NCBI GenBank assembly: GCA_963643205.1
Contig: CAVIJJ010000001.1
Location: 134,651 to 198,650, forward strand
Direction: 5' to 3'
DNA length: 64,000 bases
Source: a bacterium
GTDB taxonomy: Bacteria; Bacillota; Clostridia; Christensenellales; CAG-138
Positions 8,281-60,708 of the stretch are shown piece after piece. Under the pieces are notes generated by a model. That model had not been told where the DNA came from. It was given only the letters and a program-made list of their open reading frames with translations, and made no database searches. How positions within the stretch are numbered: position 1 is the first letter of the stretch; every line of letters begins with the position of its first letter. The translations under genes were made by a program, and so were the position numbers.

Positions 8281-8357
8281 CGGGGTGTAGCGCAGTCCGG
8301 TAGCGCACGTGCTTTGGGAGCATGGGGCCGGGGGTTCAAATCCCTTCACCCCGACCA
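8281..8357 (+). tRNA. tRNA-Pro (anticodon TGG)
   Basis: Cloverleaf folded by eye: acceptor CGGGGTG/CACCCCG, anticodon loop TTTGGGA, T-loop GGTTCAAATCC, encoded CCA. Confidence 0.9.
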
Positions 8358-8363
8358 ATATAT

Positions 8364-8439
8364 GGCCCCTTGGTCAAGCGGTCTAAGACACCGCCCTTTC
8401 ACGGCGGTAACAGGAGTTCGAGTCTCCTAGGGGTCACCA
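8364..8439 (+). tRNA. tRNA-Glu (anticodon TTC)
   Basis: Acceptor GGCCCCT/AGGGGTC, anticodon stem CCGCC/GGCGG with loop CTTTCAC, T-loop GTTCGAGTC, encoded CCA. Confidence 0.9.
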
Positions 8440-8468
8440 CTTCCCCATAGCGATGGGTGTTAAGAAAT

Positions 8469-8545
8469 GGGCCTTTAGCTCAGTTGGTCAGAGCGGTCGG
8501 CTCATAACCGATTGGTCCGGGGTTCGAGTCCCTGAAGGCCCACCA
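8469..8545 (+). tRNA. tRNA with CAT anticodon (elongator Met or Ile2; not initiator-like)
   Basis: Anticodon loop CTCATAA. The anticodon stem lacks the three consecutive G-C pairs typical of an initiator. Encoded CCA. Confidence 0.85.
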
Positions 8546-8574
8546 TTTTCTTAGCTTCGAACTTTTTAAATCAT

Positions 8575-8651
8575 GGCCCGGTGGTGCAGTTGGTTAGCAC
8601 GTCAGCCTGTCACGCTGAAGGTCAGGGGTTCGAGCCCCCTCCGGGTCGCCA
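8575..8651 (+). tRNA. tRNA-Asp (anticodon GTC)
   Basis: Acceptor GGCCCGG/CCGGGTC, anticodon loop CTGTCAC, T-loop GGTTCGAGCCC, encoded CCA. Confidence 0.9.
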
Positions 8652-8659
8652 AACTTCCT

Positions 8660-8735
8660 GCCTCGGTAGCTCAGCTGGTAGAGCAAGGGACTGAAAATCC
8701 CTGTGTCGGTGGTTCGACTCCACTCTGAGGCACCA
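8660..8735 (+). tRNA. tRNA-Phe (anticodon GAA)
   Basis: GCCTCGGTAGCTCAGCTGGTAGAGC 5' half, anticodon loop CTGAAAA, encoded CCA. Confidence 0.9.
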
Positions 8736-8753
8736 TATGCCATTACAGTGTTT

Positions 8754-8829
8754 GCTGGTGTAGCTCAATTGGCAGAGCAACTGATTTGTAATCAGTAGGT
8801 TGCGGGTTCAAGTCCCTTCACCAGCTCCA
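8754..8829 (+). tRNA. tRNA-Thr (anticodon TGT)
   Basis: Acceptor GCTGGTG/CACCAGC, anticodon loop TTTGTAA, encoded CCA. Confidence 0.9.
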
Positions 8830-8848
8830 TTGATAAATGATTTGCCGT

Positions 8849-8933
8849 GGATGGGTTCCCGAGCGGCCAAAGGGAGCGGACTGTAAATCCGTTGTCACAG
8901 ACTACGATGGTTCGAATCCATCCCCATCCACCA
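8849..8933 (+). tRNA. tRNA-Tyr (anticodon GTA), class II with long variable arm
   Basis: Acceptor GGATGGG/CCCATCC, anticodon loop CTGTAAA, extra arm, encoded CCA. Confidence 0.88.
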
Positions 8934-8939
8934 ATATTC

Positions 8940-9026
8940 GCGGGAATGGCGGAATTGGCAGACGCGCACGGTTCAGGTCCGTGTGAGGGCGACTTCATGC
9001 AGGTTCAAGTCCTGTTTCCCGCACCA
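8940..9026 (+). tRNA. tRNA-Leu (anticodon CAG), class II
   Basis: Acceptor GCGGGAA/TTCCCGC, anticodon loop TTCAGGT, long variable arm, encoded CCA. Confidence 0.88.
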
Positions 9027-9801: not shown

Positions 9802-9878
9802 CTGGGTGTGGCGCAGTTTGGTAGCGTGCTTGAATGGGGTTCAAGAGGCCGGAAGTTCGAATCTTCTCACCCAGACCA
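9802..9878 (+). tRNA. tRNA-Pro (anticodon GGG)
   Basis: Acceptor CTGGGTG/CACCCAG, anticodon stem CTTGA/TCAAG with loop ATGGGGT, T-loop GTTCGAATC, encoded CCA. Confidence 0.88.
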
Positions 9879-31004: not shown

Positions 31005-33362
31005 TTACTTTTTAAGCGTAACCACCGTTACGCCGGCATCGCCTTCGCCATAACTGCCCATGCGGTAGCTCTTCACAAGTGAATGATGCTTCAAGAATGC
31101 CTGTATACCGGCTCTCAGTGCGCCTGTGCCTTTGCCGTGGATTATATTCACTTCATTAAGCCCTGCGTTATAGGCATCATCAAGGTAGCGATCAACGACT
31201 ATATTGGCCTCATCTACGAGCATTCCCCGAACATCAAGCTCAAGCCCAACTTGCTTGCCCGCGCCCAATCCAACTTTGCCGGAAGCCGGCATTTCTGGCT
31301 TTTTTTCTTCAATCAGGCGTATATCCTTAAGCTTTACATTAAGCTTCATAACACCGGCCTGTACTGTTACCTCCCCTTTTGAATCGGCTGCGGTAAGCAC
31401 AGTGGCTTTTTGATCAATTGAAACAATCCTTACGGTTTCGCCGGGACGTACGGTCTTGGGCGGTTTGGTATTATCCTCCTTCTTTACCTCTTCTTTTCCA
31501 TTTATCGAAGTTTCCGCCGCCCTTAATGTATCGCGGGAGGATTGTATAATTCTATCGGCGGCGCTGCGGTCAATATCCTTAATGGAATGAATCTGCGTAA
31601 TCAGCTTTTCCATTTCTCGCTTGGTATCGGCTACTATTCGCTTGGCATCTTCTTTTGCTTTAGCTTGCAGACGGCTGCGGTCATCTTCAAGCTTTTTTCG
31701 TTCGCGTTCAGCTTCGGCGCGAAGTTTATCCAACTCCGCACGAGCTTCTTCGGCCATTTTACGCTCTTCCTCAGCAATGCGGTGCTGCGATTGGGCACTG
31801 GAAATAATATCTTCAAAGCGTACATCTTCGCCCTTCAGAAACCCTTTTGCGTTTTCGATAATGCCGGTAGGCAATCCGAGGCGGGAAGAAATCTCAAAAG
31901 CATTGGATTTACCGGGTATGCCGATATAAAGCCTGTATGTAGGGCAAAGCCTATCCACATCAAACTCCATGGAAGCATTCTCCATGCCCTCATGAGTCAT
32001 GGCAAAAGCCTTTATTTCGCTGTAATGCGTTGTAGAAACACATATACAATTGCGATTATTCAGTTCCTCCAATATGCTCATCGCAAGGGCCGCTCCCTCA
32101 ATGGGATCAGTACCGGCGCCAAGTTCATCAAGCAGCACAAGGGAGTGGTTGTCAGCCTTATCCAATATTCCGACTATAGTTTTCATGTGCGAGGAAAATG
32201 TTGAAAGAGACTGTTCAATCGATTGCTCATCGCCTATATCGGCATATATATTTTCAAATACCGGGAATTCACTTCCCTCATTTGCGGGTATAAATATGCC
32301 GCTTTGTACCATTAAGGCGAACAAGCCAACTATCTTTAGAGTAACGGTCTTGCCGCCGGTATTGGGGCCTGTAATTATAAGCGAACGATAATCCTTCCCT
32401 ATCCAAATATCAATCGGCACAACCCTTTCGGACGGTATCAGCGGGTGACGACCGCGCACTATGCGAACATAGTTAGAGCGGTTAAGCTTAGGCATAACGG
32501 AATTAAGTTCACGCGAAAGCTTAGCCTTTGCAAATACCAAGTCTACGCGGCCCATTATATTTAGATTTTCTCTTATTTCTGAAGCGTAAGGCGCAAGCAT
32601 AGCCGTAAGTTCGGTAAGAATTCGCTCTATTTCATCAGATTCCTCGGCAAGCAGTTTTTTATATTCATTTCCAAGTTCAACAACAGCCGCCGGCTCTATA
32701 AAAAGTGTAGCACCACTGCCGCTTTGGTCATGTATAAGTCCGGGTACCTGTTGGCGGTACTCTTGCTTAACGGGAATAACAAAACGACCATTTCTTATCG
32801 TTATTATCGGTTCCTGAAGATACTTTTGATAAGAAGCAGACCTTATCATCCCATTAAGCCTTTCGCGTACTTTTTCGTTCGCAAGGCGCATGGAACGGCG
32901 AATTCGAGCTAATGCAGGCGATGCGCCGTCAAATATCTCGTCTTCGTTAATTATGCAGCGGCCTATTTCTTCCTCAGCACTTCTGTGCGTTATTAATAAT
33001 CCTGCAAGATTGCGGAGATAACTCTCCTCTCCCATTTCTTTCAGCAGCACATCTTTAGCTATTCTTGCCGCTTTAAGACAGCTTGCTATACCGAGCAATT
33101 CGCCGGTGGACAGAAATAGAGCAGCGTGCATCCTCTCGAGGCAATTCCGCATATCCGGGAAATCATCTATAGGTGATCTGCCGGTTTTATAATAAAGTGT
33201 CTCTGCCTCCGCGGTAAGCTTAAGCTCACGCTCGACTGTGTCAAAATCGCAGGATGGTTCAAGCTCATCAACAAGCTCTCGTGATACGCAGCACGAGGCG
33301 TGTTGCTTCAGCATCACGAGTATTTTATCAAATTCCAGTGTTTTTAAAGTTCTTTTTTCCAT
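31005..33362 (-). CDS. mutS2: Endonuclease MutS2
   Basis: MutS domain V ATPase (GPNTGGKT, DELGAGTDP), a coiled-coil region and a C-terminal Smr domain (LDVRGM...HGKGTGALR). Start at 33362 has a GGAGA RBS. Confidence 0.93.
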   Translation of the reverse strand: MEKRTLKTLEFDKILVMLKQHASCCVSRELVDELEPSCDFDTVERELKLTAEAETLYYKTGRSPIDDFPDMRNCLERMHAALFLSTGELLGIASCLKAARIAKDVLLKEMGEESYLRNLAGLLITHRSAEEEIGRCIINEDEIFDGASPALARIRRSMRLANEKVRERLNGMIRSASYQKYLQEPIITIRNGRFVIPVKQEYRQQVPGLIHDQSGSGATLFIEPAAVVELGNEYKKLLAEESDEIERILTELTAMLAPYASEIRENLNIMGRVDLVFAKAKLSRELNSVMPKLNRSNYVRIVRGRHPLIPSERVVPIDIWIGKDYRSLIITGPNTGGKTVTLKIVGLFALMVQSGIFIPANEGSEFPVFENIYADIGDEQSIEQSLSTFSSHMKTIVGILDKADNHSLVLLDELGAGTDPIEGAALAMSILEELNNRNCICVSTTHYSEIKAFAMTHEGMENASMEFDVDRLCPTYRLYIGIPGKSNAFEISSRLGLPTGIIENAKGFLKGEDVRFEDIISSAQSQHRIAEEERKMAEEARAELDKLRAEAERERKKLEDDRSRLQAKAKEDAKRIVADTKREMEKLITQIHSIKDIDRSAADRIIQSSRDTLRAAETSINGKEEVKKEDNTKPPKTVRPGETVRIVSIDQKATVLTAADSKGEVTVQAGVMKLNVKLKDIRLIEEKKPEMPASGKVGLGAGKQVGLELDVRGMLVDEANIVVDRYLDDAYNAGLNEVNIIHGKGTGALRAGIQAFLKHHSLVKSYRMGSYGEGDAGVTVVTLKK

Positions 33363-33475
33363 GCCGCGTCTCCGATTATTTATATCATAAATACATAAAA
33401 AGGCGACCGAAACAAAACGCTCCGGCCGCGCCAAATTTTCCAGTCACAAACAGCCGTGACTTTATAATAAATTTC

Positions 33476-44222: not shown

Positions 44223-44656
44223 CTTGTTATCCCCATATCATTTAATATTTTATCCTGAAGGGCAAACATTTCTTGCCTCTCTTCATCCGTCATATGATCA
44301 TAGCCAAGTATATGCAGACAACCATGAACAGTCAAAAACGAAAGTTCCCTTTCAAAAGAGTGCCCGTATTCCTCGGCCTGCGCCTTGGCTCTGTCTATCG
44401 AAATCGCGATATCGCCCAAGAAACCGTCTGGAACGGAAGAAAGCTCCTCTCCTTCACTTGAAGGAAAGCTCAATACATCCGTAGGCCTGTCAACATTGCG
44501 ATAATCCCTGTTCATAGCCCAAATGCCATCATCATCCGTTACAAGAACGCTTATATTACCCGAAACTTTCTCGGCGGCCAGCGCTCCATTGGCGGCCCGT
44601 TTAATTATCACCTCGGTATCCTTTGGACAATCCGTTTCAAGTATAACATCTATCAT
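44219..44656 (-). CDS. ybeY: rRNA maturation endoribonuclease YbeY
   Basis: HGCLHILGYDH metal-binding motif. 145 aa. Confidence 0.92.
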   Translation of the reverse strand: MIDVILETDCPKDTEVIIKRAANGALAAEKVSGNISVLVTDDDGIWAMNRDYRNVDRPTDVLSFPSSEGEELSSVPDGFLGDIAISIDRAKAQAEEYGHSFERELSFLTVHGCLHILGYDHMTDEERQEMFALQDKILNDMGITR

Positions 44657-46791
44657 TTTTTAAGATCCTCCATGTTCGGATATTCTATCCTATCATGCAT
44701 CAAACCGGCGAAAGTTTTCAAAAAGCTCTTCTCTATTTCGCTTATCTCGGCGATTGTAAGCGGCGCGTTAGACATCATATTCTCGTTTTCGTTAAGCTTG
44801 CCCCATATTATCTTGTGCACCATTTGCTCAACGGCGGCGCTGTTTGTATCTCCCAATGATCTAACTGCGGCTTCACAACCATCGGCCATCATAACAATTG
44901 CGCTCTCTTTTGAAGACGGCCTATTTCCGGGATAGCGGAATCCTTTTTCCTTCACGCTGTCATCCGCCTGTTTTGCCTTAAAATAGAAATAAGTCATAAG
45001 CGAATTGCCATGGTGCTCTCCGCATATCTTTATAACGGCGGAGGGGAGCTTATATTTTGTTAATAAGGTTACGCCGTCCTTTTGATGGGCGATAATAGTT
45101 TGAGCGCTTTCAAGCGGCGGAAGAGTATCGTGTATATTCTCGCCGTTTTTCTGATTTTCCTTAAAATACAGCGGACGCCTCAGCTTGCCTACGTCATGAT
45201 AATATGCCCCTACACGCGCAAGCAATGCATCTGCGCCTATGCGCTCAGCGGCGCCTTCCGCAAGAGCCGCAACCATAACACTATGCTGATAGGTTCCCGG
45301 AGCTTCGCTCATAAGCTGTTTCAAAAGAGGGTGGTTGGTATTGCTCAATTCATTTAACCTTGCCGGCGTAGCAACATCAAATAAGGTTTCCCATATAGAC
45401 AGCGAACCCGTAACCAGCAGGGAGCAAACTATCGCACTGCCGAATATCCAGGCGATTGACTCCATCAAACTCCAGAATTCGCATTTTAGCATAAGCTGGA
45501 GCATCAGCATGACAAACGCTGCATATCCGCCGCCTACCGCGCCGGCAGCTATCATGGACGCCCTGCTTTGTGCCTGCTTAAGAGCAAGGATAGCGGCGAA
45601 GCCGGAAACCATATTGCATATTATCATTATTGTGCAATGCGAACCGAGTATTCCGCTGCCTGATCCGCCGGCCATTATGCCGAATATAACGCTCAGAAGC
45701 ATGTTAACAGCATACGCCGTGCCCTCGCCAACAAGTAAAGAAGTTAGCATTATAGGGATGAGTATAGGCGTAAAACGGTAATCAACGCGATTGGTAAGAT
45801 AAGCTAATCCGCAGGAAAGCATTATCAGCACAGAAACAATGGCCATGCATTTTATGCTGGAAAGAGTTTCCTTTTCCATAAAACGCATATAAATTGCAAA
45901 TAAAGCAAACAGCAGCAGAATAAAGAGAAGTATTCCTACTGTAAGGCTTATGTTGCTGTCTTCTCCCTTGACCAAATCCATGCTTTCAAGCAGCGCAAAT
46001 TGGGATTCGCTTACTATGCTGCCTTTTTCCACCACAATTTGGCCTTTCTTTACCGTTATCGGTTCAACGCTTTCAATAGCCGCGGCATGTTCAGCCTCTG
46101 TCGCAGATGTATCCACTCCCAAAGTAGGCTGAAGGAAGTTGTCAAATATGAGTACCGCGATTTTCTTAAGCCCGGCCGGTATTGCGCTCATTGCGTTTAT
46201 TTCACGCGTGCAGCTGGATACCAAGCTATCTCGACCGTCCTCCGACACCCCGGCTTCGAGTGCGGTATTAAGCTTTGAAAGTGTAACATCCTTTAGGGTT
46301 TGCAGCTGATCACTGCTTGCGGACAGTACAGCCAGCAGACTTGATTCATCTATCGCAGGCGATACGGCAGAGCAAAGAGAAGCCTTTGATGCGTCCGAGA
46401 GAGCTTCTCCCCACTGAGATGATGTTGCGGGCATATCCGCATCCTGTGGTACTTCAGCCGCTGCTTTTACGTAAAGTTTTTCAAGGCCCAAAAAGAAATC
46501 TTCCGCGTTATTTTCGTATTCGCTAATCTTTGCCGAGTCGATTGCATATACGCTGCCTGCTTCGCTGCGTGCCTTTTCGCGCATTATTTCCGTATTTATT
46601 TCGTCTACTGCCTCGCAGGTAGCAAGAATGGTAGCAGGTGACACCTCTCCGACTTTTACATCATATCTTACAGGCGTGAGCATGCCTTTAACAAATATAA
46701 AGGCCACAGCTAAAGACAGCAAAAGCATACAAAGCGAAATTAACCTTGCATTTTTCCTGGTAATCTGTTTTGTTGCTTCACGTTTTGCCAA
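44653..46791 (-). CDS. pgpH: 7TM-HD membrane phosphohydrolase (PgpH/YqfF family, c-di-AMP phosphodiesterase type)
   Basis: Extracellular N-domain, 7 TM helices and a C-terminal HD domain (HSVMVA...YHDVGK). phoH-pgpH-ybeY synteny. Confidence 0.85.
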   Translation of the reverse strand: MAKREATKQITRKNARLISLCMLLLSLAVAFIFVKGMLTPVRYDVKVGEVSPATILATCEAVDEINTEIMREKARSEAGSVYAIDSAKISEYENNAEDFFLGLEKLYVKAAAEVPQDADMPATSSQWGEALSDASKASLCSAVSPAIDESSLLAVLSASSDQLQTLKDVTLSKLNTALEAGVSEDGRDSLVSSCTREINAMSAIPAGLKKIAVLIFDNFLQPTLGVDTSATEAEHAAAIESVEPITVKKGQIVVEKGSIVSESQFALLESMDLVKGEDSNISLTVGILLFILLLFALFAIYMRFMEKETLSSIKCMAIVSVLIMLSCGLAYLTNRVDYRFTPILIPIMLTSLLVGEGTAYAVNMLLSVIFGIMAGGSGSGILGSHCTIMIICNMVSGFAAILALKQAQSRASMIAAGAVGGGYAAFVMLMLQLMLKCEFWSLMESIAWIFGSAIVCSLLVTGSLSIWETLFDVATPARLNELSNTNHPLLKQLMSEAPGTYQHSVMVAALAEGAAERIGADALLARVGAYYHDVGKLRRPLYFKENQKNGENIHDTLPPLESAQTIIAHQKDGVTLLTKYKLPSAVIKICGEHHGNSLMTYFYFKAKQADDSVKEKGFRYPGNRPSSKESAIVMMADGCEAAVRSLGDTNSAAVEQMVHKIIWGKLNENENMMSNAPLTIAEISEIEKSFLKTFAGLMHDRIEYPNMEDLKK

Positions 46792-54495: not shown

Positions 54496-54801
54496 TTATG
54501 AGTCGGCTTTTATGTTCATAGGGTAGAAAATAACATAACATTCGCTCATTTCGCCTAAAAAAAGGAATATGTTCTCCCCCATTTCAATATGTCGTTTAAA
54601 AGTAAGGTCCGGTATGAAAAGCCTTCCGCTTGTACGTTTAGGACCTTTTAGGGTGTAACCCACATCGTTCGGATTGGCGTGCAAAGACTCAACAGCTTCG
54701 CAAAGTCCGGGAAGTTTAAGCGTTTTTTCAAGTTCCGGAAGCATCGTTTCGGCGTTTATGTACACAAGATTATCAGGATCCGTAAACCAATTTATATTCA
54801 T
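54496..54801 (-). CDS. Hypothetical 101-aa soluble protein, the only gene downstream of the cobalamin riboswitch
   Basis: GGAGGA RBS 5 nt upstream of the ATG. Protein-like composition with no TM segment. No family recognised. Confidence 0.7.
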   Translation of the reverse strand: MNINWFTDPDNLVYINAETMLPELEKTLKLPGLCEAVESLHANPNDVGYTLKGPKRTSGRLFIPDLTFKRHIEMGENIFLFLGEMSECYVIFYPMNIKADS

Positions 54802-54899
54802 AGTTATCCTCCGAATACAAAAATACCGCCGGATTTCTCCAACGGTACAGATAAAAAGCTATCGCCAAAGCTGCTTCCTTGTCCAAATCCGCGTGGAGA

Positions 54900-55070
54900 A
54901 GCATGCTCCGTGCAGGTCTTCTGGCTTACGCATCGTTGCTCAGCTTCGCCTTCCCATATAATACAGTGGCTCAATGAAGCTTCGCTAGCGCATACAGCGG
55001 CGGGACCGCGCAGGCTTTTAACCTGCTTCCCTTTTAACCAATCTATTACCGATTGGACACGAAACATTTA
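54900..55070 (-). promoter_or_regulatory. Cobalamin (B12) riboswitch aptamer; the leader continues to the RBS at 54807
   Basis: The minus strand carries the conserved blocks in the canonical order. First, GGTTAAAAGGGAAGCAGGTTAAAAGCCTGCGCGGTCCCGCCGCTGTA (55039-54993). Then GCCACTG...GGGAAGGC (54970-54948). Then the B12 box AAGCCAGAAGACCTGC (54927-54912). A 10-bp closing P1 helix, ATGTTTCGTG (55067-55058) pairing with CACGGAGCAT (54912-54903), encloses them. Confidence 0.85.
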
Positions 55071-55080
55071 TTTCATGGTT

Positions 55081-56536: not shown

Positions 56537-56566
56537 TTGAAATCTGCTGTTTTCCATATGTATAAT
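56537..56566 (+). promoter_or_regulatory. Promoter of the GTPase-NYN gene (TTGAAA -18 nt- TGTATAAT extended -10)
   Basis: -35 at 56537-56542, and -10 TATAAT at 56561-56566 preceded by a TG. Confidence 0.55.
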
Positions 56567-56600
56567 GTATAAGAAGGAATTTTTTTGATTGGAACGTATA

Positions 56601-59231
56601 ATGAAGCGATTGACTGTAGGCATAATGGCCCATGTAGACTCCGGTAAAACTACGCTAAGCGAAGCTATGCTTTACGCAAGCGGCATGATCAGAAAACCCG
56701 GCAGGGTGGACCACGGCAATGCCTTTTTAGACACACACGAGTTAGAGAAGCAACGCGGCATAACCATTTTTTCAAAGCAGGCCATAATCAATTATAAAGA
56801 TTGCAGTTTTACGCTTCTCGATACACCGGGCCATGTTGATTTCTCTGCGGAAACAGAGCGGGCACTCGGCGCTATGGACTACGCTATATTGGTTATAAGT
56901 GCGCCTGACGGCGTGCAAAGTCATACCGAAACATTATTCGGCCTTATAAAGCACGCAAACGTCCCTACATTTGTATTTGTAAATAAAAAAGATATAACAT
57001 CTAAAACCAATGCCGAGATTATAGCTGAGTTAAATAGGCTTTCATCAGGCTTTGTTGACTTTTCAGCCAATAGGCCGAAAAATATCTTTTACGAAGAAAT
57101 TGCAACTTGTTCCGAAGATATGCTAAGCGAATATCTTTCAGACGGTATTATCAGCGACTTGAAAATAGCGCGAGCTATAAAAGGAAGGCAGCTATTCCCC
57201 TGCCTCTTTGGCTCCGCGCTAAAATTCGAAGGGGTTTCGGAACTGTTAGATGGTATGGACCAATACACATTGCCTATTATGGATTCCGGCAAGCTTGGAG
57301 CAAAAGTATTCAAAGTATCCCAAGATTCTCAAGGAGCTAAATTAACTTTTGTTAAAGTCAATTCCGGCAGCATAAAAATTAAAGACATGCTCAATGGTAC
57401 AAACGGAAGCGAATCCTGGAGCGAAAAAGCGGATCAGTTAAGAATATACTCAGGCGCTAAATTCAAGACGGTAGATGAAGCCTATGCCGGAAGTATATGC
57501 GCTGTATGCGGTTTAACAAAAGCTAAGCCCGGCGATGGCATTGGAACGGAGCATCCTTCTTCCAGACCAACACTTGAACCCGTATTAACATATAAAGTTA
57601 TCGTAGACAACGCTTCGGATACAAATAAAGTTTTTGACGCATTAAAAAAGATCGGCGATGAGGATCCTGAACTTCACGTGGTTTGGAACGAAGGATTGAA
57701 AGAAATACGCTTAAGCCTGATGGGAGAAATTCAGCTTGAAGTGCTGAAAAGCCTGATGAAGAGCCGTTATGGTTTTGATATTTCTTTTGACCAGGGCGGT
57801 ATACTATACAAGGAAACTATAAGTGATAAAGTAGAAGGCGTCGGCCATTATGAACCCTTAAGACATTATGCGGAAGTGCATTTAGTATTAGAACCTTTGA
57901 AGCGTGGCAGCGGGCTTGTTTTTGCCGCTAAATGCTCCGAAGATAAGCTTGATAAAAACTGGCAAAGGTTGATTTTGACTCATCTTGCCGAGAAGAGTCA
58001 TATAGGTGTGCTAACAGGTTCACCTATAACCGATATTAAAATTACGCTTGCCGCAGGCAGGGCTCATATTAAGCATACAGAAGGCGGAGATTTTAGGCAG
58101 GCTACCTACAGAGCTGTTCGTCAAGGGCTAATGCAGGCAAAAAGTGTTTTGCTTGAACCATGGTATAAATTTATATTGAGCGTTCCTAATGAGAACATTG
58201 GACGCGCGCTTAGTGATTTACAGCTTATGTATGCCGATTTTAACGCACCGGAACAGCATGAAAACAGCACTGTAATTCATGGCTTTGCTCCCGTTTCAAA
58301 AATGCGCGGATACTCCAACCACCTTGCGCTCTATTCCCATGGCTTAGGCAAGTTGAGTTTTACGGGCAGCGAATATCGTGAATGCCATAACAGTGAAGAG
58401 ATTATCGAGCAAATAGGTTATAATGCCGAAGGCGACACATTCAACACCGCCGATTCTGTATTTTGTGAGCATGGCGCGGGGCATATCGTAAAATGGAATG
58501 CGGTTTGGGACAAAATGCATGTAGAGCGAGTATTAAAGCCAAGTGTTGAACACATAAACATTAATGATGTACCCGAATATAAGCCCCTATCCCGAGCGGA
58601 TGAGGCCGAGCTTATAAAAATATTTGAGCGCACATATGGGCCTGTAAAATATAACCCTCTTGCGGCATTCAGGCAAACCTCTAGGGCGCAGGCACAAAGC
58701 AGCGCGAACATGCCTTCCTTCCCTGCCGGACCGGATTATCTGTTTGTCGACGGCTACAATATGATATTCGCCTGGGAAGACCTAACCACCATCGCCAAAG
58801 AAGATATGGATTTGGCTCGCAGCAGGTTAATCAACCTAATGTGCAACTACAACGGAGTAAGACAATGTGAATTGGTAGTTGTATTTGATGCTTACCGTAT
58901 AAAGGGTCACACTGTAAGCACCGAAAAAGTAAACAACATAACCGTTGTATATACAAAAGAAGGAGAAACTGCCGATACATATATAGAGAAAGCTACGCAT
59001 GACATTGGCAAAAATTGCCGGGTTCAGGTTGCTACATCTGACCGAGCGGAGCAATCAATAATTTCCGGCAACGGAGCCGCGCGACTGAGCGCAAACGAAT
59101 TTAGGCGGCAAGTAGATACGGCGATGTCCGCCATACGAGATTTAATGGATGAATACGCCCTTAAGGATAAATCCTCTATAAAGCTTGTTCAGGGGCGTAT
59201 AGTCGGTTTAGATAAGAATATTAATCAATAA
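56601..59231 (+). CDS. Translational GTPase (TetM/EF-G-like, five-domain) fused to a C-terminal Rae1/YacP-type NYN ribonuclease domain
   Basis: G1 AHVDSGKT, G2 RGITI, G3 DTPGH, G4 NKKD. The N-terminus is collinear with ribosomal-protection proteins. The C-terminal 166 aa (nt 58731-59231) carry LFVDGYNMIFAW, VVVFDAYRIKG, VVYTKEGETADTYIEK and VATSDRAEQ, matching B. subtilis YacP/Rae1 blocks. I chose ATG 56601 by alignment to the TetM-type N-terminus; TTG 56589 is an in-frame alternative. Confidence 0.85.
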   Translation: MKRLTVGIMAHVDSGKTTLSEAMLYASGMIRKPGRVDHGNAFLDTHELEKQRGITIFSKQAIINYKDCSFTLLDTPGHVDFSAETERALGAMDYAILVISAPDGVQSHTETLFGLIKHANVPTFVFVNKKDITSKTNAEIIAELNRLSSGFVDFSANRPKNIFYEEIATCSEDMLSEYLSDGIISDLKIARAIKGRQLFPCLFGSALKFEGVSELLDGMDQYTLPIMDSGKLGAKVFKVSQDSQGAKLTFVKVNSGSIKIKDMLNGTNGSESWSEKADQLRIYSGAKFKTVDEAYAGSICAVCGLTKAKPGDGIGTEHPSSRPTLEPVLTYKVIVDNASDTNKVFDALKKIGDEDPELHVVWNEGLKEIRLSLMGEIQLEVLKSLMKSRYGFDISFDQGGILYKETISDKVEGVGHYEPLRHYAEVHLVLEPLKRGSGLVFAAKCSEDKLDKNWQRLILTHLAEKSHIGVLTGSPITDIKITLAAGRAHIKHTEGGDFRQATYRAVRQGLMQAKSVLLEPWYKFILSVPNENIGRALSDLQLMYADFNAPEQHENSTVIHGFAPVSKMRGYSNHLALYSHGLGKLSFTGSEYRECHNSEEIIEQIGYNAEGDTFNTADSVFCEHGAGHIVKWNAVWDKMHVERVLKPSVEHININDVPEYKPLSRADEAELIKIFERTYGPVKYNPLAAFRQTSRAQAQSSANMPSFPAGPDYLFVDGYNMIFAWEDLTTIAKEDMDLARSRLINLMCNYNGVRQCELVVVFDAYRIKGHTVSTEKVNNITVVYTKEGETADTYIEKATHDIGKNCRVQVATSDRAEQSIISGNGAARLSANEFRRQVDTAMSAIRDLMDEYALKDKSSIKLVQGRIVGLDKNINQ

Positions 59232-59234
59232 ATA

Positions 59235-59263
59235 GAGAAAGCCCGGTTTTTACGGGCTTTCTC
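59235..59263. terminator. Bidirectional rho-independent terminator
   Basis: 11-bp perfect stem GAGAAAGCCCG/CGGGCTTTCTC between the convergent GTPase-NYN and AGCS genes. Confidence 0.7.
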
Positions 59264-59271
59264 ATATTCTT

Positions 59272-60708
59272 CTATTCTTTTATTTTGAGAGTATTTTTGT
59301 TACTAAAATGAGTTAAAGAAACAACCAAGCCGGAGCACGCGATCAAGCCTATAATGTTCGGCAAAACCATCAGATAGTTAAAAAAGTCCGTAAGCTCCCA
59401 AACCAAATCATTGGAGGCAACCGTGCCAAGGAATATGAACGCAAGGGCGATAACTGTATAAACCTTAACCGCAGCCTTTTCACGCCTTTCGTTTTTGCCG
59501 AACAGATAACACACATTGATCTTTCCGAACATGTTCCATCCAAGCACGGTTGAATACGCAAAGAAGAAGAGCGCGATTGCTATAAATATATTTCCGCCTG
59601 TTTGACCAAACAATGTACCGAATGCCATCTGGGCTAAGCTTGTTTTTTGCACGGCCAGTCCATTGTATGTCATTCCTTCCTGATAACCGTTGCAAAGAGG
59701 TCCTCCATCCGTATAAAGAGTGAGAACTATCGTTACGGCTGTTATGGTCAGAACAACAAACGTATCAATAAACACGCCTATCATAGCTACAGTACCTTGC
59801 TCATGAGGGTCCTTAACATTAGCCTGTGCGTGCGCATGCGGAGTTGAGCCCATGCCTGCTTCATTTGAGAAAAGTCCGCGTTTGGCTCCCTGAGATACCG
59901 CTTTCTTTATTGCCGCGCCAAACGCGCCGCCAATAATTGCCTGCGGTTCAAAGGCATATTTGAATATCATTCCAAAAGCCTGCGGGACCTTGGTAATATT
60001 TGCGACAAATATTATGATACCGCCAAGCAAATAGAAAGTGGCCATAATCGGTACAATTTTTTCGGTAACAGAAGCCAATCTGTCCATACCACCCAAGAAT
60101 ATGAACGCGGATATTGCAACAAGCAATAAACCAGTTATCCATGTAGGTATATTAAAAGCGTTATTTACAACTTCGCCAATTGAGTTGGACTGAACCATAC
60201 AGCCAAAGAAACCCAGCGCAAGTATTATCGCTACGGCAAAAAAGCCGGCGAGGAATTTTCCGAAGTTGCCCTTAAACGCGGTACGAATATAATATACCGG
60301 CCCGCCAAGAACGTCGCCATTTTCTTTTACTATTCGTGTTTTCTGCGCCAATACGGCCTCAGCATAGATTGTAGCCATTCCAAGAAACGCTATAATCCAC
60401 ATCCAGAATATTGCGCCGGGTCCGCCGAGAAGTATAGCCCCCGACGCGCCGACAATATTTCCGGTACCTACCTGTGCCGCAATAGCCGTAGCCAAAGCCT
60501 GAAAAGAGCTCATTCCTCCGCCATGTTTGCCTCCCTTTAGTGAAAGCTTGCCGAACACATTCTTTATTCCCTCAGTGAAACAGCGGACCTGAACAAACCT
60601 TGTTTTTATGGAAAAATAGAGACCGCAACCAACAAGCAAAAATATAAGTACATAATCCGTAAGATAGCTGTTGATTGTCTGAACAATTTTCAGTATAGTA
60701 TCGCTCAT
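59272..60708 (-). CDS. Alanine/glycine:cation symporter (AGCS family)
   Basis: 478 aa polytopic protein. Blocks SSFQALATAIAAQVGTGNIVG and GLFSNEAGMGSTPHAHA are characteristic of AGCS. Confidence 0.92.
   Translation of the reverse strand: MSDTILKIVQTINSYLTDYVLIFLLVGCGLYFSIKTRFVQVRCFTEGIKNVFGKLSLKGGKHGGGMSSFQALATAIAAQVGTGNIVGASGAILLGGPGAIFWMWIIAFLGMATIYAEAVLAQKTRIVKENGDVLGGPVYYIRTAFKGNFGKFLAGFFAVAIILALGFFGCMVQSNSIGEVVNNAFNIPTWITGLLLVAISAFIFLGGMDRLASVTEKIVPIMATFYLLGGIIIFVANITKVPQAFGMIFKYAFEPQAIIGGAFGAAIKKAVSQGAKRGLFSNEAGMGSTPHAHAQANVKDPHEQGTVAMIGVFIDTFVVLTITAVTIVLTLYTDGGPLCNGYQEGMTYNGLAVQKTSLAQMAFGTLFGQTGGNIFIAIALFFFAYSTVLGWNMFGKINVCYLFGKNERREKAAVKVYTVIALAFIFLGTVASNDLVWELTDFFNYLMVLPNIIGLIACSGLVVSLTHFSNKNTLKIKE

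Follow-up and report, generated by a model that had tools for sequence, protein, structure and literature searches.

A translational GTPase of the TetM/EF-G type fused to a Rae1-type endoribonuclease domain in Clostridia: a candidate ribosome-docked nuclease

Introduction

Why would a translational GTPase (trGTPase) carry an endoribonuclease at the end of its own chain? This question is raised by a gene at positions 56601-59231 of the forward strand in a 64,000-nucleotide stretch of DNA from a bacterium of the Clostridia (Christensenellales, CAG-138; assembly GCA_963643205.1, contig CAVIJJ010000001.1, positions 134,651 to 198,650), analysed at its full length and called the window here. In the encoded protein of 876 amino acids, a module resembling EF-G and TetM is followed by an NYN domain like that of Bacillus subtilis Rae1 (YacP). 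An earlier note, made from the letters of this DNA, had proposed a TetM/EF-G-like trGTPase and a Rae1/YacP-type NYN nuclease on a single polypeptide, and the profile search described below gave all of the expected domains. The most plausible idea, as we infer, is that the nuclease is delivered to the ribosome under the control of GTP.

One uninterrupted frame encodes a trGTPase and a Rae1-type nuclease

In a Pfam profile search, all six domains scored above their gathering cut-offs on one chain, beginning with GTP_EFTU at residues 3-223 (4e-50) and ending with NYN_YacP at residues 714-857 (3e-47; 161 bits against a cut-off of 24.6). Every GTPase and NYN motif quoted in the earlier note could be located in the protein: AHVDSGKT at 10-17, RGITI at 52-56, DTPGH at 74-78, NKKD at 128-131 and LFVDGYNMIFAW at 714-725, with VVVFDAYRIKG, VVYTKEGETADTYIEK and VATSDRAEQ further along the NYN region. 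The GTPase module is thus a five-domain trGTPase with intact G motifs, as found in ribosomal protection proteins (RPPs). AlphaFold2 run without an alignment gave a predicted local distance difference test (pLDDT) of 32.6, and with an alignment of 84 homologues it gave a pLDDT of 90.6 and a predicted template modelling score (pTM) of 0.72; in the latter model only residues 650-659, 694-706 and the last 8 residues fell below a pLDDT of 50. The best Foldseek matches of this model were ribosome-bound EF-G structures (E 1e-52). Longer family members, of up to 1156 amino acids, differ by insertions only and bear no additional Pfam domains.

The gene, its signals and its parts are as follows (aa, residues of the 876-residue form):

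56537..56566, + strand: sigma-70-type promoter, TTGAAA-18 nt-TATAAT, 11/12 matches, no TG extension
56601..59231, + strand: coding sequence of the trGTPase-NYN fusion, ATG start (MKRL...), 876 aa plus stop
56601..57269, + strand: G domain (aa 1-223) with a short helical G' insert; Pfam GTP_EFTU; AHVDSGKT, RGITI, DTPGH, NKKD
57300..57536, + strand: EF-G domain II (aa 234-312); Pfam EF-G_D2, 3e-07; AlphaFold2 beta-barrel, pLDDT >90
57576..57788, + strand: EF-G domain III (aa 326-396); Pfam EFG_III, 2e-12
57801..58142, + strand: EF-G domain IV (aa 401-514); Pfam EFG_IV, 8e-19; family-specific tip loops
58146..58394, + strand: EF-G domain V / EFG_C (aa 516-598); Pfam EFG_C, 4e-15
58371..58523, + strand: mini-domain after domain V (aa 591-641); conservation, AlphaFold2 pLDDT ~94
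58524..58595, + strand: spacer 1, variable and mildly acidic (aa 642-665); predicted disordered, pLDDT <50 at 650-659
58596..58640, + strand: short conserved helix (aa 666-680); consensus E-L-x-x-I-F-E-R-T-Y-G; AlphaFold2 helix at 665-679
58641..58736, + strand: spacer 2, variable (aa 681-712); predicted disordered, pLDDT <50 at 694-706
58737..59171, + strand: NYN_YacP (Rae1-type) endoribonuclease domain (aa 713-857); Pfam and alignment to 5MQ8/5MQ9
59172..59228, + strand: C-terminal helical tail (aa 858-876); low AlphaFold2 confidence at the extreme end
59235..59263, unstranded: bidirectional terminator hairpin of 11 bp, 7 of them G-C, common to the fusion gene and the convergent symporter gene
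59272-60708, - strand: Na+/alanine symporter gene, convergent with the fusion gene

The single open reading frame (ORF) that had been claimed stood up when stops and frameshifts were looked for: none interrupts the + strand frame between either of its possible starts (56589 or 56601) and its end at 59231. The NCBI gene call uses a TTG at 56589 and yields 880 amino acids; we favour the 876-residue form because homologues begin at MKRLT. An identical protein is present in NCBI, its 90% cluster has 13 members from NCBI, ENA, JGI and Logan assemblies, and 67 related loci carry the fusion as a single ORF, so that the continuous frame is not an accident of assembly. The gene was also said to be monocistronic with its own promoter, and a promoter and a hairpin were indeed found to bracket it; the promoter is not of the extended -10 type that had been suggested, as the scan shows no TG extension.

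Both catalytic centres are intact across the family

Conservation was assessed in a family alignment of 84 diverse homologues that are 38-75% identical to the query, and all conservation values given here refer to it. In the GTPase module, D13, G15 and K16 of the P-loop, T55 of switch I, D74, P76 and G77, K129 and D131 are invariant, while the catalytic H78 and N128 are conserved in at least 90% of the sequences. In the NYN domain, D717, Y719, N720, D763, D792 and D814 are invariant. The four aspartates among them correspond to D7, D53, D81 and D104 of B. subtilis Rae1, for which the D7N D81N double mutant is the published catalytically dead form (PMC10351889). The retention of the acidic active-site residues, first noticed in this one protein, therefore holds for all 84 homologues. 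Judged by these residues, both catalytic centres are intact and fixed across the family.

The nuclease domain is close to Rae1

The C-terminus aligns to the crystal chains of B. subtilis YacP/Rae1 (5MQ8/5MQ9, residues 2-135, E 1.8e-22), with 42% identity over about 130 residues. Both proteins belong to the NYN_YacP fold family and both have all four acidic residues. Rae1, however, is a free protein of about 170 amino acids encoded in the gltX-cysE-cysS-mrnC-rlmB-rae1-sigH cluster, whereas the NYN unit described here is the C-terminal domain of an 876-residue GTPase encoded at an unrelated, stand-alone locus.

What is known of Rae1 sets the expectations for this domain. Cleavage of mRNA by Rae1 takes place only on ribosomes that are translating or have stalled, and it feeds tmRNA; the documented substrates of Rae1 are all mRNAs (PMC10351889, PMC13622287). 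In B. subtilis its translation-dependent cut lies about 12 nt upstream of the stalled ribosome's A site, and Rae1-dependent cleavage on collided ribosomes feeds trans-translation in what has been named the 'CART' pathway (PMC13622287). As Rae1 binds ribosomes only transiently, there is no structure of it in the ribosome-bound state (PMC13622287).

No second NYN domain was found in the 64-kb window. The 'stand-alone' NYN proteins nearest the fusion were a frameshifted or fragmentary fusion gene (P0286) and ambiguous 777-nt contigs (P0254). On a 559-kb metagenome contig (L089, 5921-8681), the fusion is called as three adjacent genes on the same strand (GTP_EFTU, EFG_IV and NYN_YacP), most likely because of indel errors; split gene calls of this sort generate spurious 'stand-alone' NYN proteins in protein databases.

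The GTPase module has a clade and a probable decoding-centre probe of its own

The best NCBIfam match of the GTPase module is tet_protect (NF012153), collinear over residues 5-584. RefSeq names and Atkinson 2015 invite the reading that the protein is a tetracycline RPP with an accessory RNase domain, and this top match speaks for it, as do the RefSeq naming of the Agathobacter rectalis homologue as a TetM/TetW/TetO/TetS family RPP and a rough neighbour-joining tree, in which the fusion GTPase modules are sister to RPPs relative to EF-G. The scores themselves point the other way: tet_protect reached 399 bits against a cut-off of 775, and the Tet(M), Tet(O)/(W), Tet(Q) and Otr(A) 'exception' models 230-284 bits against cut-offs of 900-1425. 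The EF-G model TIGR00484 reached 295 bits against 659, in a match broken into 3 stretches. Every Tet and EF-G equivalog model of NCBIfam thus scores below its own cut-off. Fusion GTPase modules are 36-45% identical among themselves and form their own clade, as against 26-35% identity to Tet(M), Tet(O), TetB(P) and an OtrA-like protein and 25-30% to EF-G.

A further difference lies at the tip of domain IV. According to a summary of the TetM/TetO structures, the loops of RPP domain IV are those that dislodge tetracycline (Atkinson 2015, PMC4342817). Tet(M), Tet(O), TetB(P) and the OtrA-like protein have in common the loop I motif ..NPFWA..GL and the loop III motif [YF]x[SG]PxST[PA]ADFR, the latter including the YSPVS tip of TetM. 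In the fusion family the corresponding tip loops, GHYEPLRHYAEV (about 415-426) and GRAHIKHTEGGDFRQ (486-500), are near-invariant and unlike the motifs of both RPPs and EF-G, with EPLRHYAEV and AHxKHTEGGDFR standing in place of the RPP motifs. The C-terminal segment of TetM gave no alignment to the fusion protein.

Comparison with individual relatives leads in the same direction. The fusion has the collinear five-domain layout and the short G' insert of Tet(M) and Tet(O) (PDB 3J9Y, 4V6V), but it is chromosomal, not carried on mobile elements, and has 280 extra C-terminal residues. With EF-G (fusA) it shares the fold, and H489 aligns with His573 of EF-G domain IV (T. thermophilus numbering); in contrast to EF-G, its G' subdomain is shorter (the G domain comprises 221 aa) and the GGRGQ tip of loop I is removed by a 4-residue deletion. 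A carrier genome retains a separate EF-G: Ruminococcus albus 7, which has the fusion, also encodes canonical EF-G and EFGII, and for this reason we regard the fusion as an accessory factor and not as the translocase.

On this evidence, the family appears to have its own decoding-centre probe and not to be a tetracycline-protection protein. Since a core-chromosome site free of mobile-element genes and vertical spread in commensal Clostridia also speak against protection from tetracycline, we consider that role highly improbable.

The linker is a conserved structure

Domain V and the NYN domain are separated by 115 residues, which are more than a plain linker, although residues 591-713 matched nothing in Pfam and no sequence in the PDB. 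The first part is a mini-domain with the pattern GY.xCHN..EVI..GYDPE.D..N..DSVFC.HGAG..V.W..V...MH, modelled by AlphaFold2 as a helix, a beta-hairpin and a second helix. S619, F621 and G625 are invariant in it, and Y592, C595, Y607, D612, C622, W632 and H640 are conserved at 90% or more. At positions 595/596/622/624/640 the combination C-H-C-H-H is the commonest (44/84 homologues), and C595, C622, H624 and H640 might, speculatively, form a metal (zinc) site.

The mini-domain is followed by spacer 1, whose length ranges from 17 to 95 aa across the family, by the short conserved helix, in which E670 and I674 are conserved at 90% or more, and by spacer 2 of 25-87 aa. Spacer 2 is rich in Lys and Arg family-wide, with a median net charge of +5; in this protein it is weakly basic (+2). 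Altogether, the tether from the mini-domain to the NYN domain measures 62-143 residues (median 82). As low pLDDT occurs only in the spacers and at the very C-terminal end, both the mini-domain and the helix count as confident predictions. The whole arrangement of mini-domain, helix and spacers is kept in all members, which argues for one ancient fusion maintained under selection.

The basic tether also bears on what the nuclease might cut. A basic tether, as most members have, is expected to bind RNA non-specifically, and the anchoring module should, by its homology to EF-G/TetM, contact rRNA directly. It is thus conceivable that the NYN domain is directed at the ribosome itself, cutting rRNA (for instance 16S close to the decoding centre or to its 3' end, or 23S around the factor site) or ribosome-bound tRNA, so that ribosomes are inactivated or dismantled in starvation, sporulation or another stress. 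The presence of the tRNA-modification gene trmO directly downstream of the fusion in 4/80 loci would fit such a target. On the other hand, the closeness of the domain to Rae1, with its 42% identity, its same four acidic residues and its exclusively mRNA substrates, argues against it. Moreover, an rRNA-killing enzyme would be dangerous behind a constitutive-looking promoter with no antitoxin or regulator gene, and the protein matches no defence or toxin family. We consider ribosome-directed cleavage unlikely, though not far-fetched.

The family is catalogued but far larger than reported

The earlier note had left room for an architecture that no one had yet catalogued. It is in fact already on record: TetM-like/NYN_YacP fusions, including those of R. 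albus 7, [Eubacterium] rectale and [E.] eligens, were listed by Atkinson 2015 (BMC Genomics, PMC4342817, Additional file 8), who suggested testing for rRNA RNase activity; a TetM-NYN_YacP fusion was also reported from some Clostridia, with a role described as unclear, by Matelska et al. 2017 (NAR, PMC5499597). Homologues of our protein occur in the same taxa, and the order of trGTPase domains I-V followed by NYN_YacP is identical, with no architectural difference. The architecture is therefore not new, and this protein is another member of the family; what those papers did not contain is an analysis of the linker, the domain IV loops, the catalytic residues or function. Full-text literature searches found no functional study of any family member, in agreement with the earlier note, which knew of none.

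A phmmer search with residues 590-876 against 1.84 billion representatives returned 383 matches at E <=1e-30. Among the best 150 of these, 80 were full-length (at least 820 aa); two shorter matches that we examined were fragments or frameshifted pieces of fusion genes, or ambiguous. When one genome for each GTDB species was scanned, relatives were confirmed in at least 584 species genomes. Locus-level results rest on the best 80 of these matches; all 80 were fusions, and 67 of them were single ORFs of at least 800 aa with the same domain order. Carriers belong to Ruminococcus, Faecalibacterium, Oscillospiraceae, Acutalibacteraceae, Oscillibacter, Monoglobus, Blautia, Lachnospiraceae and others. 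In gut Clostridia, then, the family is far larger than the two surveys suggest, and its carriers include very abundant bacteria of the human and ruminant gut (Faecalibacterium, Agathobacter rectalis, Ruminococcus).

The naming of these proteins in databases is uneven. RefSeq calls the Monoglobus homologue a 'translation factor GTPase family protein', and the Agathobacter rectalis homologue (WP_306784676.1, 933 aa; NZ_CP143948.1, locus L084, 6631-9432) a 'TetM/TetW/TetO/TetS family tetracycline resistance ribosomal protection protein'. As the family fails the Tet cut-offs and is without the RPP loop motifs, the resistance label in some RefSeq records is probably wrong, that is, a false positive. 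Naming of this kind can inflate resistome counts in gut metagenomes. NZ_CP143948.1 is labelled a plasmid, yet its classification is non-mobilizable and housekeeping genes lie on it, and the same applies to the 518-kb Monoglobus 'plasmid 12'.

A possible GTP-gated nuclease on stalled ribosomes

How might the two halves work together? We read the protein as a GTP-gated, ribosome-docked Rae1 that would cut mRNA on stalled or collided ribosomes, a chromosomal translation-surveillance factor of the housekeeping type. We prefer this reading with a confidence that stops somewhat short of even; what we infer in it is that the protein binds the ribosome, that GTP gates it and that mRNA is its substrate, together with where the cut falls and how it connects to rescue.

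In the preferred reading, the EF-G/TetM-like module (domains I-V) in its GTP form would dock at the factor site, that is, at the sarcin-ricin loop and the GTPase-associated centre, of a ribosome whose A site is idle or, in a collision, of a trailing ribosome unable to translocate. The family-specific tip of domain IV would then probe the decoding centre. The tether of 62-143 residues, largely disordered and mostly basic, could give the NYN domain access to mRNA outside the A site. The likeliest target would be mRNA at the entry channel of the bound ribosome or close to it; in a collided pair this is the stretch between the trailing and the stalled ribosome, where Rae1 is reported to cut. The NYN domain would cut the mRNA there. 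Hydrolysis of GTP would free the factor, and the truncated mRNA would pass the ribosome to trans-translation (tmRNA), as in the 'CART' pathway of B. subtilis Rae1.

Domain IV of EF-G/TetM-like factors occupies the ribosomal A site. As this domain would itself fill the site, the tethered nuclease would have to act outside it. Delivery of the nuclease into the A site, as the earlier note had it, is thus unlikely; Rae1, too, is no longer thought to act there.

Several points weigh against a factor of this kind. Literature searches turned up no experiment on any family member. The reported Rae1 cut falls on that side of the stalled ribosome where the mRNA exits, a point that a nuclease anchored at the factor site would reach most easily from the trailing ribosome. 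RPP-like factors prefer ribosomes that are not rotated and whose A site is empty, whereas the trailing ribosomes of collisions have been described as rotated. Should carriers retain a stand-alone rae1 as well, the role of the fusion must be a different one. Finally, the substrate of the NYN domain could be rRNA or tRNA rather than mRNA.

A bolder form of the same idea, which we put forward quite tentatively, is that the fusion represents a new kind of bacterial no-go-decay factor. Here the GTPase would read the state of the ribosome, engaging one that is untranslocatable or has an idle A site, and the time spent bound, or GTP hydrolysis, would act as a timer that licenses the cut of mRNA by the Rae1 domain; in many gut Clostridia such a factor would replace or supplement free Rae1. 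SmrB of E. coli and Cue2 of yeast likewise cut mRNA at stalled or collided ribosomes for rescue (PMC13622287), but their SMR fold is unrelated to NYN and they have no GTPase module, so that the likeness is functional and hypothetical only.

Rae1 has recently been placed at the centre of ribosome-collision rescue in Gram-positive bacteria (PMC13622287), and a natural, conserved fusion that joins Rae1 to a factor-site GTPase hints at the place and manner in which such a nuclease meets the ribosome. This work of 2025-2026 makes the fusion a timely experimental target. Because of the anchoring of its nuclease, a form with a dead GTPase, or one locked by GDPNP, could be caught on ribosomes as a complex for cryo-EM, and if the no-go-decay reading is true, the trapped complex could offer the first structural view of a Rae1-type nuclease in action.

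Genomic context

The window is core chromosome, with mutL, ftsK, mutS2, polA, recD2 and a tRNA array. The immediate neighbours of the fusion gene, a ROK-family protein, a MATE transporter, the Na+/alanine symporter and an ABC exporter, are unrelated to it and divergent or convergent. Across the 80 related loci there is no conserved neighbour, the most recurrent family (in at most 14 loci) being generic ABC ATPases, and no antitoxin-like or regulator partner gene was seen.

A role in defence or growth arrest, which had been suggested for this gene, found no footing in its surroundings. PADLOC defence models gave no match apart from a chance-level TIR-like hit (E 0.005), and 2.9 million viral contigs yielded a single fragmentary match, so the gene is essentially absent from them. 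With the searches of PADLOC, for partner genes and for phage association all negative, and with the gene at a core-chromosome site, we rejected a defence or toxin system.

The context also bears on a role in ribosome maturation. Eukaryotic Nob1, a PIN nuclease, cleaves pre-18S rRNA in 80S-like particles, a step driven by the GTPase eIF5B. By analogy, the EF-G-like module might 'test-drive' new subunits while the NYN domain trims the end of a pre-rRNA. YacP was first proposed to serve rRNA/tRNA maturation, on the grounds of its operon with mrnC and rlmB (PMC4342817, PMC5499597), and the Rae1 cut site, at the mRNA exit, would lie near the 3' end of 16S rRNA. Later work, however, showed that Rae1 acts as an mRNA nuclease, and the fusion is linked to rRNA-processing genes in none of the 80 loci. 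Furthermore, the family is limited to some Clostridia, whereas the needs of rRNA maturation are universal. We find a maturation checkpoint quite unlikely, and the probability left over by our preferred reading and its rivals goes to something not yet imagined.

The sole recurring translation-related neighbour is trmO, which encodes a tRNA m6t6A37 methyltransferase (Pfam TrmO_N, TrmO_C). In the four loci mentioned above (L006, L014, L024, L029) it lies on the same strand as the fusion, about 10-30 nt downstream, and in 4 more of the 80 (L011, L016, L048, L074) it is nearby; we take this as a weak signal.

MutS2 is the sensor and splitter of collided ribosomes in the ribosome quality control (RQC) pathway of B. 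subtilis. Its gene lies at 31005-33434 on the - strand (TIGR01069, 945 bits), 23 kb from the fusion gene, and shows that this genome also has that rescue route; for a link with the fusion there is no evidence.

Other features were seen elsewhere in the window. A full-length cobalamin riboswitch (54894-55077, - strand, 121 bits) stands directly upstream of a 100-aa ORF (54496-54801, - strand) that has no Pfam or NCBIfam match and is a B12-controlled small protein. The tRNA genes form an array of nine at 8281-9023 (+ strand), with one more at 9802-9875 (+ strand). At 44653-46791 (- strand) there is a gene for a 711-aa seven-transmembrane receptor with an intracellular HD hydrolase domain (7TMR-HDED, 7TM-7TMR_HD, HD).

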